Positions 2,637 through 45,785 of a stretch of 64,000 nucleotides of DNA are shown here, piece after piece. Numbering within the stretch: position 1 is the first letter of the stretch; every line of letters begins with the position of its first letter. This DNA is from Octopus sinensis (Eukaryota): contig NC_042999.1 in the NCBI RefSeq assembly GCF_006345805.1, positions 9,114,001 through 9,178,000 of the forward strand, written 5' to 3'. Position numbers and translations under genes: made by a program. Under the pieces are notes generated by a model that was given only the letters and a program-made list of their open reading frames with translations, was not told the origin of the DNA and made no database searches.

Positions 2637-3327
2637 CGTGTGTGTGTGTCGTGGGTGTAGAATGCTTGAAGTGATATAGAGATATTGTATACTATGAAAA
2701 TGGGTGGCAATCAGGATTTTCGATAATTGTATATTGATTACGGGCAGAAGTAGTGGGTGAGCATCGTAGGCATGTGTTGAGAGGAATTCGTTGCGATTTT
2801 GATAATTCACCTCTGGAAACTCTTTCGTTCGTTATCATTCTTCATCCTCGCTCGATGACGGAGTGGTAATACTGGAAACCAATGGCGCAATCAAGACGAA
2901 ATTGGAAGTGCATTGTGAACGGCGGTGTATAACTGCATCTGATGCTCTTGTCGATACTTTGATACAGCGATTTATATACATATTTACAAATACATATATG
3001 TGTATTATGCAAGTATATATGTCTGTATGTATGTAATATATAAGTATATATATGTATGGGCGTGTATGTGTATGTGCGTATTTGTGCGCGCACGTGACAG
3101 AGAAAGAGAGTATATGCATATATGTGTTCGTCAAATAGTGAACCGAGTTGCGTCTTTTTCATCAACCTATTTTTAACCATTCGATAAAAAATTATCGATG
3201 TATTAATACGAGGCTTAAGTCCTCTGATCAATATGATTGACAAATCCCTTGAAGACAATACCCCCAGCACGTACCTGAGTTCAATGAAACTACAACTACA
3301 AATAAAGTAAAATGAATTTATGCATAT

Positions 3328-8416: not shown

Positions 8417-8648
8417 GATGTTCCGCTCCGAACCTTATTTGAAAGAAATGTTCAAGGAGTTTCGAAACCTTGTAACAGACGATGAAATGCGCGAAAATGT
8501 GGCCCTGGAGAAACATGCCACAATGGTAATGAATTTGCTTGATGAAGCCATCAACAACATCGATAATGTTGACCTTTTGTTGGATTTACTACACAGAGTT
8601 GGGAAGAATCATTTGCGATTTGAAGGCTTTGATGTCAGTTACTTTTGG
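8417..8648 (+). CDS. Globin (globin X-like / neuroglobin-like), internal coding exon, helices B12-G6
   Basis: Polypyrimidine tract ending ccacAG (8415-8416), donor GTGAGT at 8649. Translation MFRSEPYLKEMF..LEKHATMVMNLLDEAI..VGKNHLRFEGFDVSYFW shows Pro C2, Phe CD1, distal His E7, proximal His F8 and Phe G5. The phase-2 start matches B12.2 and the phase-0 end matches G7.0. Confidence 0.93.
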
Positions 8649-10104: not shown

Positions 10105-11108
10105 GATGCAGACAATTCGTCGACAGACAATTCGCCGACAGGCAATTCGCCCATTGGACAATTGGCTGGCTGGACAATAAGTCGACATGCGGAAGTATCG
10201 ATTATGGAGTTCATCAAAACGGAACGAGGAGGGAGAAAGCTTCTATACAAAGAGTACACCTATATAATTGATAGAACCAGTAAAGAAAAGACTTATGGGA
10301 GATGCACAAATCGTAAACTGTGCAGCGCTAAACTGACAACGATTGCTCTTTGCTCTTTTGCTTGTTTCAGTCATTTGACTGCGGCCATGCCGGAGCACCG
10401 CCTTTAATCGAGCAAATCGACCCCGGGACTTATTCTTTGTAAGCCCAGTACTTATTCTATCGGTTTCTTTCTGCCGAACCGCTAAGTGACGGGGACGTAA
10501 ACACACCAGCATCGGTTGTCAAACAATGCTAGGGGGACAAACACCGACACACAAACACACACACACACACATACATATATATACATATTCACGACAGGCT
10601 TCTTTCAGTTTCCGTCTACCAAATCCACTCACAAGGCATTGGTCGGCTCGGGGCTATAGCAGAAGACACTTGCCCAAGATGCCACGCAGTGGGACTGAAC
10701 CCGGAACCATGTGGTTGGTTAGCAAGCTACTTACCACACAGCCACTCCTGCGCCTATTGATGACAAAATTAGCAAAACTCCTTCTGAACCCATACATCCA
10801 CCTACGCCGATTGAAAATCCCACTGCAAAAGTTAAGGAAAAATTAAAGCAGCGATAAAGAACATTAAAAAAAATTTCTATTTCCAAGACTAACAAAACTT
10901 TTTGTGCTTTTTTTTATTTCAGCCTATTGTACGTAATATCTTTTTTAAAAATAAGTTGTTTTATTTGTAAGTTTAAAAAACCTTTTTCGTAATTTGTACC
11001 TTGTTTTTAAAAATGTCGAAATATTGCCCTTTCGGCAAATTGTCCAATCGGTCAATTGTCCTGTCTGTAAGTGTCTGCCGGCCAACTGTCTGTCGACGAA
11101 TTGTCCCT
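10105..11108 (+). mobile_element. Mutator-like (FLYWCH) DNA transposon relic with tandem 15-bp subterminal inverted repeats, interrupted by a SINE
   Basis: Left end has cagacaattcgtcga-like units and the right end has inverse units ending ctgtcgacgaattgtc. Translation MEFIKTERGGRKLLYKEYTY..YGRC...C.AKLTT resumes after the SINE as IDDKISKTPSEPIHPP. Confidence 0.65.
10346..10755 (-). mobile_element. SINE family A inserted into the FLYWCH coding region
   Basis: Reverse-complement full copy, with attg on both flanks. Confidence 0.85.
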
Positions 11109-13751: not shown

Positions 13752-14161
13752 TGGCTGTGTGGTAAGTAGGAGTGGCTGTGTGGTAAGTAACTTGCTTACC
13801 AACCACATGGTTCCGGGTTCAGTCCCACTGCGTGACACCTTGGGCAAGTGTCTTCTACTATAGCCTCGGGCCGACCAAAGTCTTGTGAGTGGATTTGGTA
13901 GACGGAAACTGAAAGAATCCCGTCGTATATATGTATATATATATGTTTGTGCGTGTGTGTTTGTGTGTCTGTGTTTGTCCCCCTAGCATTGCTTGACAAC
14001 CGATACTGGTGTGTTTATGTCCCTGTCACTTAGTGGTTCGGCAAAAGAGACCGATAGAATAAGTACTGGACTTACAAAGAATAAGTCCCGGGGTCGAGTT
14101 GCTCGACTAAAGGCGGTGCTCCAGCATGGCCGCAGTCAAATGACTGAAACAAGTAAAAGAG
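13752..14161 (+). mobile_element. SINE family A
   Basis: Full copy with a duplicated 5' ggctgtgtggtaagta. Confidence 0.85.
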
Positions 14162-23706: not shown

Positions 23707-24640
23707 CTAGTTAGTTAGTTAGTTAATTTGGCTCAAAAGCAAATAGCAAGGCCATGTAGGGGGACATGGAGTTAAGTACAGGGTGGTGTTCATGTAAAGA
23801 GTTCAGGCCACTTGAGGTCAAGGGAGGCTTTGAACAAAGCGGTCGTCGGCATCTTCACCATCTCGTCTGGCAGCTTGTTCCACGGATCCGCAACCCGGAC
23901 GGAGAAAGCTCCTCTCCTTCGATTGAGATGAAATCGTCGCAGGTAGAGCTTTTCGGAATGACCCCGCAGCCGACGCTCTGGAGCAGGAGTGAAGAACAGC
24001 TCTTTCGAGAGGTTACACTTTCCGCTTATGATGTTGTGGGCGAGAATGAGATCACCACGGCGGCGGCGTTTTTCAAGAGAATAAAGGTCGAGCGTCCTCA
24101 GCCTTTCTTCGTAGGACAAATTTTTGAGGCCATGAACCATGCGGGTAGCCAGCTTCTGGACTCTTTCGAGATGCTGTATGTCTTTGAGGAGATAAGGAGA
24201 AGAGGCTTGAATCCCGTACTCCAATATGGGTCTCACCAGCGTGACATAGAGTGGTAGGAATATGGCTGCTGTGAGCATTCCGAATGACCGTCGAATCAAG
24301 AACAGAATTCCGCGTGCTTTGTTGGCAGCATGGACGCACTGGACCGAAGGCGAAAAGGAGGAATCCCCCAAGATACCCAGGTCCTTTACCTGATCGGTCC
24401 TCTCCAGCAGCAGACGACCCGGCTCGAACTCAAGTTGAGTTGCAGGAGGAGAGCCAACAGGCAGATGACAGCACTTTGTCACGTTCAGACACAGGTCCCA
24501 TTTGTTAGACTACTTCCAAATTTGATGGAGGCATCGACGAAGATCCTCTATATCACCGCGAGGAGCGACCAGTTTGATATCGTCGGCAAATAGAAAGGTG
24601 TGTTGCGTGAGGTCGTTGGGCAAGTCATTTATGAAGACTA
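23707..24640 (-). mobile_element. 5'-truncated CR1/L2-group LINE (RT C-terminus, 3'UTR, (AACT)n tail)
   Basis: Minus strand gives VFINDLP..FLFADDIKL (one stop follows), then ORF 23790-24482 with KDLGI, LYVTLVRPILEY, LERVQKLATR, LEKRRRRGDLI, RLRGH, FSVRV..WNKLP. Tail ttagttagttag. Confidence 0.9.
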
Positions 24641-25706: not shown

Positions 25707-26796
25707 CGTAAGGATAAGCATCTTCCTTTTTACTCTAAGCACAGGGCCCGAAAATTTGGAGGAGGGAGCCATTCGATTAGATCGACTCCAATACGCAACT
25801 TGTACTTAATTTATCGACCCCGAAAGGATGAAAGGCAAAGTCGACCTCGGCTGAATTTGATAAAGATAAGCGTATTAAAAGGGGTCCGTGGGAAATCTCA
25901 TTTCAATAAAACGGTTGGGAACCATTGCTCTAACCAATTCCAGCAGCTGCCTCTTAGTTATTCTCATTGTTAAGCACATTTTCGTTACTCTCTGTCTCTC
26001 CCGTTCTCTCTCTTTTTTCTCCCCTCTCCTTTTCTCTCCTCTTGTCTCTCTCTCTTCCCCCCTCTCTCAATAGATTTAGAGCTTTAGTAAACATTATTAT
26101 ATTTCCCCGTGCACATAATCCCTAATCAACAGAGAAAACTTAGTTTATTTGTTCAATTTAAACTTGCCAATCCAATTCTCATGTTTTGCTTCCAGAAGAT
26201 TCTTAATATTTCTTTCTATCTTCCTTTTCCAGGTTACTTTTTTTCTTTTTCCTGGTAATTCTTTAAAGTTTAGTTTGTTTTTTATTGTTCATATTCCTTA
26301 TTTAATTGAAATTCCAAACAATCCTGACCAGGAGCATTGACATTTATTCACCGAATGGATGCAGAATTCTAACGATTTTTTTTTTTGTAACATTTTCCTG
26401 AAACATTTCAAGATTGCAAAGAATGATGTAACAACATTGGAAACTTACATTAGAAAACCATTTCTGTTATTCACATCGATGCCATTTTTTCAAATAGATA
26501 TGAATTAAATTTCAATGATTTGCATATTTCTTGTCAATATATTCTGCCTGATTCGAACAGGAATATGCTGATTGTTCATTATTTACAAAACTATTGAAAA
26601 GGTTGCAAGATGCAACAAAAGTTTTAGGAAAATAAAAAAAAATAAGAAAAAAGTGGAAATTATACCGGTGAGTGTGTTACATTATAAGGCACAAAAAGAA
26701 AATGACTCCCCCCAGACACAACAGAATAAGCTTCAACACACGAACTCATATAAAGAATCTAGCAAACCAAATCCCCAAACAAAACATTATTTACAA

Positions 26797-27045
26797 TATT
26801 TACATTATTTACATTTGACAGATATTTGTCCTCATCTTGTTTGTTGTTAACACAACGTTTCGGTTGATATACCCTCCAGCCTCCATCAGGTATCTAGGGG
26901 AAATTTCGAACCTTAGCAATGAGAACCAAGGTTCGAAATTTTCCCAAGACACCTGATGAAGGTTGGGGTATATATCAGCCGAAACGTTGTGTAAACAACA
27001 AACAAGATGAGGGCAAGTATCCGTCAAATATAAATAATGTAAATA
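26797..27045. repeat. ~250-bp palindrome of two inverted hammerhead-bearing repeat copies (family H3)
   Basis: Arms ~118 bp (26797-26914 and 26928-27045) with a 13-nt spacer. Fragments of the same family occur at ~45243 and ~45724. Confidence 0.85.
26949..26992 (+). ncRNA. Minimal type-I hammerhead ribozyme, canonical core
   Basis: ACAC-CTGATGA-a-GGTTGG ggtatata TCAGCC-GAAA-CG-TT-GTGT: stem I ACAC/GTGT, 6-bp stem II with G.U pairs, palindromic AACGTT, GUU site after 26988. Confidence 0.7.
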
Positions 27046-27282
27046 ACGTACATAATTCCTCATCTCTTAGATAAAGAAATACTGATCGTTGTTGTATTTC
27101 GTCACCGGAGAACAGCTTCTATTTTCACGACGAATATATGGTCATAATACATTCCATTTGTTAGTACAAGGGACTTTAGAACATTTTGTGTTTCAGCATC
27201 ATTAGGTCCCGTCAACCAGAAGCAATCCCGGCAAATGAATTAACAAGGGCTGAAATTATTGTTTATAACTTTAGCGAAGAAA

Positions 27283-40694: not shown

Positions 40695-40835
40695 CTTGCC
40701 GAAAAACCCCTGTTGGAGGCGATAAAGATTACCCTGGGAGACCGCTATACCGAAAACATGGACATTATTTATAAACTGGTTATTAGGTTTCTGCTAACAG
40801 AAATAACGAAAGCTTGTAGAAACGATGTGTCCTGA
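40695..40835 (+). CDS. Globin terminal coding exon (helices G7-H, stop)
   Basis: Long T/C tract then ccAG (40693-40694). Phase-0 frame LAEKPLLEAIKITLGDRYTENMDIIYKLVIRFLLTEITKACRNDVS* with TGA at 40833-40835. It continues the 8417-8648 exon in frame and is absent from the supplied ORF track. Confidence 0.9.
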   Translation, partial: LAEKPLLEAIKITLGDRYTENMDIIYKLVIRFLLTEITKACRNDVS

Positions 40836-45167: not shown

Positions 45168-45332
45168 AGTTAAATCAGACAGAATGGCGGTACATTTGTG
45201 GGGGTTTTTCGTTTTGTTGAAATGGTAAACTAGATTAGTCTGTACATTATTTACATTATCTATATTTGAGGGATCTTTGTCCTCATCTAGTTTGTTGTTA
45301 ACCAGGATTCCGAGTTCGATTCCAAGAAGTGG

Positions 45333-45476: not shown

Positions 45477-45785
45477 GTGTGTGTGTGTGTGCAGTAATCC
45501 CTCAACTATCGCGAGTGCTACGTTCCAAAACCCCCGCGATAGGTGAACCGCAATATGGCGAGGGATTACTGACCTGGGTATCTAAGTGCACATTAACAGG
45601 ATGGCGATAAAGTGCAAACGAATGGCTGGATGGATTCTAAGAACGTTCAGTTAAATCAGGCAGAATGGCGGTACATTTGTGGGGGTTTTTCGTTTTGTTG
45701 AAATGGTAAACTAGATTAGTCTGTACATTATTTACATTATCTATATTTGAGGTATCTTTGTCCTCATTAAGTTTGTTGTTAACCA
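45168..45785 (+). repeat. 137-bp direct duplication (45168-45304 and 45649-45785)
   Basis: The two copies differ at only a few positions. Confidence 0.9.
45492..45571. mobile_element. 80-bp MITE with pogo/Tigger-like ends
   Basis: TIR cagtaatccctc ... gagggattactg. Confidence 0.65.

Follow-up and report, generated by a model that had tools for sequence, protein, structure and literature searches.

A hammerhead-bearing palindrome in an octopus globin intron reads as a single inverted Penelope insertion, likely formed by twin priming

The palindrome in a globin intron of Octopus sinensis probably represents one Penelope/Poseidon insertion, in which two 5'-truncated pseudo-LTR (pLTR) copies stand head to head; it likely arose by twin priming and is likely a neutral relic. 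We give this reading a probability of about 0.7. The palindrome lies in the window, the 64,000-nucleotide stretch of contig NC_042999.1 that we analyzed (positions 9,114,001 to 9,178,000). Two inverted arms of ~118 bp around a 13-nt spacer had been recognized there in an initial annotation, and folding agrees: 26797-26914 pairs with 26928-27045 at 104 of 118 positions (the 14 mismatches are 6 G.U, 5 A.C, and 3 others), with a minimum free energy of -164.8 kcal/mol (z -25.9) that none of 200 shuffles equaled. The element itself reaches beyond the 26797-27045 noted earlier and extends from 26577 to 27078. Its parts and those of the host gene are as follows.

8417-8648, plus strand: globin exon (Pfam PF00042 positions 3-80), upstream of the element-bearing intron
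8649-40694, plus strand: GT-AG intron in phase 0, 32,046 bp, containing the palindromic element
26565-26576, no strand: left copy of the target-site duplication, 12 bp, matching the right copy at 10 of 12 positions
26577-26588, minus strand: true outer end of the left arm, severed by a subsequent insertion, whose duplicated target site it became
26589-26784, plus strand: younger copy (196 bp) of a different repeat family, which inserted into the element's left end
26785-26914, minus strand: left arm, a tail-less pLTR fragment 5'-truncated about 22 nt before the hammerhead
26850-26893, minus strand: degenerate minimal hammerhead with A9G (26883) and a C.A mismatch in stem II (26864)
26910-26914, no strand: 5-nt junction microhomology, in the native ACCTT..AGGT inverted motif of the pLTR
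26910-27078, plus strand: right arm, a tailed pLTR fragment whose 5' truncation lies about 40 nt before the hammerhead
26949-26992, plus strand: minimal type-I hammerhead with an intact core and the features described in excerpts of PMC4209133; predicted cut after 26988
27050-27078, plus strand: tail of the Penelope-like element (PLE), about 30 nt, on the right arm only
27079-27090, no strand: right copy of the target-site duplication, 12 bp
40695-40835, plus strand: last coding globin exon, 46 aa and stop

Only 4 of the 63,988 12-mers in the window lie within 2 mismatches of the target-site duplication. This duplication shows that the palindrome is a single insertion event. The 12-mer at 26577-26588, which the younger insertion duplicated, occurs exactly twice in the window (at 26577 and 26785). 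When compared with the majority base of each family column, the right arm differs at 9 of 113 positions (8.0%) and the left arm at 5 of 113 (4.4%), and the mean of unselected arms is 6.8%; the insertion has thus undergone ordinary decay, like other copies. The repeat nested at 26589-26784 is itself abundant, with 1,474 candidates at about 91% identity, and its end is sharp. Several of its copies have adjoining inverted fragments, which is the anatomy of PLE ends, but we noticed no hammerhead core within its 196 bp.

Each arm could be identified as the pLTR end of an abundant Penelope/Poseidon retrotransposon. An exact 36-mer from the hammerhead region has 1,703 matches in the genome (its reversed control has 0), and per-column divergence gives a rough estimate of 43,000 arms. 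The Penelope origin suggested earlier is upheld by other copies, which carry RT and GIY-YIG coding sequence upstream of the arm. RVT_1 scored over the cut-off in 2 of 3 ORF pieces upstream of arms (E 1.5e-9). Upstream of an arm there is also a VYSIPCSCG..YKGET..H..H motif, which we take to be a GIY-YIG-type C-terminus; the Pfam search left this endonuclease piece itself unscored. Among 1,175 candidates we found 82 RT homologues, with PF01541 in 3 of the 82. They include an Anolis protein at 33%, a similarity consistent with the Penelope/Poseidon type. The family has the arrangement of EN+ PLEs, RT followed by a C-terminal GIY-YIG domain in one ORF, and the window copy is truncated. Its closest relatives (P0003-P0007) are 53-67% identical and more distant ones 29-46%. 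None of the copies examined is intact and full-length, the longest open frames being about 440 aa.

The copies share a common order: ORF stop, tRNA-like segment, (AAT)n, ACCT..AGGT inverted motif, hammerhead, AAATAATGT repeats, and an optional tail. One copy (L162) runs from a pLTR through the tail and the ORF to a second pLTR, and three others (L319, L325, and L326) are similar. In L162 and most of 19 further loci (L313-L331) the tail continues into the ORF, and the post-tail sequence of L162 matches the N-terminus of P0007, a relative of 847 aa. The right arm of the window itself reads as N-terminal codons of the PLE ORF (11 of 17 residues identical to P0007 residues 18-34, E 2e-4). Thus, the hammerhead overlaps the start of the ORF, and the family shows both a pLTR that overlaps the ORF start and partial tandems. 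This architecture resembles what excerpts of PMC11167929 and PMC3846280 describe for Poseidon_Ac of Anolis and Pen2a of Adineta: an RT with C-terminal GIY-YIG, a hammerhead in the pLTR, a pLTR overlapping the ORF start, an inverted 5'-truncated copy at the 5' end, a tail of 30-40 nt on one inverted pLTR, and target-site duplications of about 8-13 bp. The octopus pLTR, however, opens with a tRNA-like head containing A and B boxes, followed by (AAT)n, and those excerpts mention no such head. Penelope families have been catalogued in Octopus vulgaris (PMC13282606, excerpts), and the present family may be among those listed in the supplements of PMC4209133, PMC8557442, and PMC13282606. Four loci on different contigs (L321, L322, L324, and L328) have one common inverted junction (-49/+62) followed by ORF sequence; either a single structure has been re-amplified as a unit, or the loci are duplicates created in the assembly.

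How do two pLTR copies come to lie head to head? Our unselected sample consisted of 97 loci from the first 100 listed matches of the 36-mer, all on a single contig (C1) and picked by one arm. With partners allowed up to 1.9 kb away, 55 of the 97 had an inverted partner. The tail (~33 nt) was present on both arms in 3 of these pairs, on the right arm only in 21, on the left arm only in 25, and on neither in 6. Exactly one arm therefore carried a tail in 46 of 55 pairs (Fisher p 4.6e-7), and one of the nine exceptions, L134, which has two tails, is borderline. The rule was tighter still in short palindromes, where it held in 22 of 23 (what remains of 30 loci once 6 reverse duplicates and 1 identical one are removed). 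Solo copies carried a tail in 22 of 42 cases. Of the 55 resolved pairs, 34 had the tail on the arm that extends less far in the 5' direction, 18 had it on the arm that extends farther, and in 3 the two arms were similar in reach. Flanking direct repeats of at least 7 bp were found at 47 of 78 pairs (shuffled mean 4.4, maximum 12). Paired arms also had 32 minority variants in common (null mean 9.3, maximum 23), which indicates that both arms come from one source.

The junctions were less uniform. Where one arm of a pair stops is independent of where the other does, and the two points can differ by hundreds of bases. At junctions that lack added bases, 18 of 21 showed an overlap of at least 2 nt (null 17%), a proportion in which BLAST overlaps can overstate microhomology; added bases were seen at 26 of 47 junctions, partly as an artefact of microsatellite masking. 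The junction of the window recurs in 12 of the 23 short palindromes, the remaining 11 use other junctions, and its exact pattern is present at only 10 loci (15 strand matches). The palindrome is thus a recurring outcome of insertion rather than a family of its own.

These features would be accounted for by twin priming. The GIY-YIG endonuclease would nick both strands about 12 bp apart, and each 3'-OH would prime reverse transcription on element RNA, one at a distal and one at a proximal internal start site, which would set the tail ends. Both minus-strand cDNAs would stop just upstream of the hammerhead and would then be joined via their complementary ACCTT/AAGGT ends. The hammerhead would be carried along because it lies between the start and stop points of reverse transcription. 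In L1 twin priming, two primers at staggered nicks yield an inverted insertion within a target-site duplication, joined by microhomology. The octopus insertion is likewise inverted within a target-site duplication and joined by microhomology, but here both cDNAs would copy the same RNA segment from two adjacent internal start sites, which would produce a near-perfect palindrome. According to excerpts of PMC11167929, the in vitro activity of a Poseidon protein includes nicking and extension of both strands, with reverse transcription starting at two sites that flank the tail. The same excerpts report no strand difference in the start site, so the coupling of one distal with one proximal start is something we infer. 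The tail counts connect this 2024 in vitro result, with both strands extended and two RT starts, to genome architecture. In the titles and abstract openings that we searched, no paper on PLE mechanism paired twin priming with Penelope. The family offers a genomic test of an open Penelope question, the origin of inverted pLTRs and of their one-sided tail.

The strongest competitor, which we nevertheless regard as unlikely, derives the same Penelope relic from self-priming: a single cDNA would fold back at the native ACCT..AGGT hairpin, and the endonuclease would later trim one tail. Self-priming is the published model for inverted PLE structures (PMC3846280, excerpts), and the endonuclease has been suggested to trim a symmetric hairpin (PMC8557442, excerpts). 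Fold-back would explain why junctions lie at native inverted motifs, with 12 of 23 short palindromes at the motif used in the window, and why paired arms share variants; combined with later trimming, it could also yield one tail per pair. However, copying by fold-back cannot supply a tail that the template arm lacks, and in 34 of 52 informative pairs it is the arm supposed to be the copy that bears the tail. This makes two separate minus-strand cDNAs the simpler reading. Since such cDNAs can be joined only where the RNA is locally self-complementary, twin priming also fits junctions at native inverted motifs. The independent stops of the two arms and the many junctions with added bases speak against fold-back as well, and so does the match between the tail ends and the two in vitro RT start sites (PMC11167929, excerpts). 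On balance, the one-tail counts fit twin priming, with its two start sites for RT, better than they fit the fold-back model in print.

The tRNA-like head sets the family apart from the Penelope/Poseidon elements of the excerpts cited above, as judged from its sequence. An A box (TGGCGTAGTGG) and a B box (AGTTCGATTCC) stand 44 nt apart with a score of 21.7 (0 of 200 shuffles), and the head aligns to tRNAs of the same genome with z 5-7.5, in a comparison set limited to 22 distinct tRNAs from 9 types. The head falls short of a full tRNA: ARAGORN found none in 14 loci, and there was no RF00005 match. A 39-mer of the head occurs 529 times in the genome. We found no evidence that the head is an independent SINE family: a PLE arm follows within 560 nt after 24 of 30 heads, and 5 of the other 6 have inverted PLE pieces upstream. 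The 5' ends of the 97 central arms fall after -40 in 21 cases, in the microsatellite in 33, at -135 to -85 in 11, at -175 to -136 in 27, and beyond in 5; hence, of the 43 that reach the head, 38 end between -175 and -85 and 5 go beyond. This pile-up likely marks the start of the transcript, but a short native palindrome at the head could also draw junctions there.

These observations raise a possibility about the family as a whole that we advance only tentatively, because we consider it doubtful: that it is a Penelope driven by Pol III from a captured tRNA-type promoter, its sense strand of ~2.8 kb, including the ORF, kept free of TTTT, with coordinated twin priming giving rise to ~10^4 hammerhead-bearing inverted repeats. 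Reverse transcription that starts internally, just behind the hammerhead, would then make short SINE-like copies, two per insertion. Besides the box spacing, which is that of tRNAs, and the clustered 5' ends, a scarcity of TTTT runs points this way. Coding parts contain 9 against 39 expected (9 against 56 in a second count), counts taken over related copies, and no run is common to more than 3 of 11 copies. At the column level, about 2,500-2,800 aligned columns hold no shared TTTT where about 6 are expected (p about 0.003, from two alignments that partly overlap); a 6-T run of columns proved to be an artefact of flanking sequence. Among 37 relatives a single one, L197, combines A/B boxes (0 of 200 shuffles) with an AAT run behind them, and is free of TTTT from 392 to 2986, over 2.6 kb. 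Against this, L197 retains two TTTT near its 5' end, one match in 37 tests is modest, and relatives that have no head (L203, L215, L220, and L225) are also poor in TTTT. In 51 relatives there was no overall depletion (258 against 207), several individual loci being depleted. Translation of an uncapped Pol III RNA would also be hard to explain. L197 comes from a metagenome record and is 37% identical; its positions 2820-3030 hold A/B boxes, an AAT run, and a minimal hammerhead in the same order.

Known elements provide partial parallels. Penelope of D. virilis uses an Inr/DPE-type promoter (PMC2377424). According to excerpts of PMC10886601, Helenus and Cassandra are TRIMp3 elements, Helenus having a small-RNA-derived Pol III promoter inside its terminal repeat. 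The Sm-alpha SINE-like repeats of Schistosoma have a Pol III promoter followed by a hammerhead (PMC6765202, excerpts). The octopus family is like Helenus in having a Pol III-type promoter in a terminal repeat and like Sm-alpha in the order of promoter and hammerhead, the promoter being predicted in our case; unlike these two non-autonomous elements, the octopus head belongs to an element that also bears an RT-endonuclease ORF. Across titles, abstract openings, and passages, with Repbase, subscription papers, and supplements outside this coverage, no tRNA-like or Pol III pLTR was reported. If the head is a working Pol III promoter, the family would be a Penelope counterpart of TRIMp3, and it might even be a coding retrotransposon transcribed by Pol III.

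We turn to the ribozymes. Excerpts of PMC4209133 describe the minimal hammerheads of metazoan PLEs as having a CUGANGA and GAAA core, an extra base between 9 and 10.1, a G10.1-C11.1 pair, a palindromic 15.2-16.2, and a short stem I. The right hammerhead (ACAC-CUGAUGA-A-GGUUG..CAGCC-GAAA-CG-UU-GUGU) has all of these, including the extra A after A9, the palindromic (ACGU) stem III, and an NUH site; stem I has 4 bp, a fifth pair having been lost, and stem II has 5 bp with one G.U. A complete minimal type-I hammerhead at 26949-26992, and an opposite-strand counterpart with A9G in the left arm, had both been proposed, and their motif features agree; the left one lacks the required A9, has the additional C.A break in stem II at 26864, and is broken to judge by these changes. 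A check with covariance models did not come out as envisaged: no Rfam hammerhead model matched at gathering or E-value thresholds, solo arms included, and Rfam returned no tRNA and only generic hairpins, all under the gathering score. The Rfam models evidently miss the present minimal form, and the assignment rests on the published features for that reason. These features also bear out the proposed dimer-type identity, with cleavage itself predicted, and the hammerhead is best explained as the Penelope element's own dimer-type ribozyme. Related PLEs of other animals keep the same core with a differing stem II (e.g., L195, L197, L203, L206, and L232), and some (L251 and L256) also bear hammerheads as opposite-strand pairs. 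Dual minimal hammerheads on opposite strands, 100-700 bp apart, are described for Schistosoma (PMC4209133, excerpts); in the window, ~60 bp separate the cores, one of which is dead, and both sit within an intron of the host. Both opposite-strand hammerhead pairs (PMC4209133, excerpts) and inverted pLTRs are thus already in print.

Within the genome, the core is not measurably better kept than its surroundings: 21 of 481 cells are variant in the core (4.4%) and 280 of 4,778 in the flanks (5.9%; p 0.22), and 19 of 36 unselected arms retain an intact core. Family-wide, the catalytic G12 is part of a CpG (26980-26981 in the window), and it is altered in 15 of 49 unselected arms, so that genomic copies quickly lose the ribozyme. 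In folding predictions, the hammerhead stems form with a probability of 0.91-0.98 when the 46-mer is folded by itself; this falls to at most 0.012 in the context of the right arm and to 0 in the full palindrome. The predicted long hairpin of the globin pre-mRNA would thus bury the hammerhead, and the suggestion that the hairpin masks the ribozyme stands as a folding prediction only (stem I/II pair probability 0). Because the hammerhead fold is already predicted to be rare in the right arm by itself (P about 0.01), the antisense arm would be unnecessary for silencing.

That the palindrome lies in a globin intron, as had been stated, is confirmed by the plus-strand exons at 8417-8648 and 40695-40835 and the GT-AG intron between them; the product of the first exon is 93% identical to an Octopus bimaculoides protein named neuroglobin. 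Whether the insertion matters to this gene is another question. We consider it highly improbable that the host has retained it as an RNA switch, in which the hairpin masks the ribozyme and tunes the globin gene by recruiting ADAR or Dicer. The predicted hairpin is very stable and lies on the sense strand of a real intron, the right core is intact, and inverted repeats are the main A-to-I targets of ADAR in animals (PMC9989829, excerpts). Yet both arms have diverged like any copy, mismatches on the globin strand are not skewed toward G.U (6 G.U against 5 A.C), and about half of unselected arms (19 of 36) have an intact core anyway. The right hammerhead has lost its fifth stem I pair and is predicted to fold rarely even without the antisense arm; in addition, single minimal hammerheads gave no cleavage in vitro (PMC4209133, excerpts), and cleavage by the Poseidon hammerhead required the element's protein (PMC11167929, excerpts). 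The left end has also been struck by another insertion. The importance for the globin gene claimed in the initial annotation is therefore not borne out: this is one of thousands of decaying inverted insertions. By its sequence this is an unremarkable inverted Penelope insertion in decay, a likely neutral relic that sits in the intron of the globin gene. By analogy, action of ADAR or Dicer on the hairpin is plausible, as for any such inverted repeat, and incidental A-to-I editing of the predicted hairpin in the globin pre-mRNA is likely. Genomic copies showed no excess of A>G over T>C on the element's sense strand (0.019 against 0.017), the trace ADAR would be expected to leave. Reads of 4 runs (2 of them guessed to be RNA) were swamped by other copies, and none of those listed spans the element or bridges an end by 31 letters. 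The family is in any case a large source of long intronic hairpins in an animal that edits heavily.

Least probable of all is a self-amplifying palindromic family, MITE-like or retrozyme-like, that moves as a 250-bp unit: the best 40 of 5,781 candidates in a genome search were all full palindromes, but they were chosen by a query that was itself palindromic, the exact junction is restricted to 10 loci while the arm has 1,703 exact matches, junctions vary, the tail is on either side, and no tandem head-to-tail units were seen. We rejected a MITE because junctions are variable and ends unequal where a fixed interior and fixed ends are required. A non-LTR retrozyme was rejected likewise, as animal retrozymes are defined by tandem head-to-tail units, each with a hammerhead (bioRxiv paper), and the locus is a head-to-head pair without a tandem array.

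The globin intron and its surroundings hold further repeats. Another inverted pair in the intron, 10534-10749 and 13768-13983 (216 nt, 88%), means that the palindrome is not the sole possible dsRNA there. An open frame of 239 aa at 23790-24509 on the minus strand resembles, by eye, the C-terminal RT region of a LINE. A second globin exon is found on contig C3 (9359142-9359381, minus strand), ~237 kb from the globin gene studied here, and two small contigs (C8702 and C8845) give uninterrupted full-length globin matches and may be bacterial contamination. Downstream of the globin stop, two diverged 60-bp fragments from the tail side of the same PLE as the palindrome (45241-45302 and 45722-45783) lie within a local duplication of ~130 bp.
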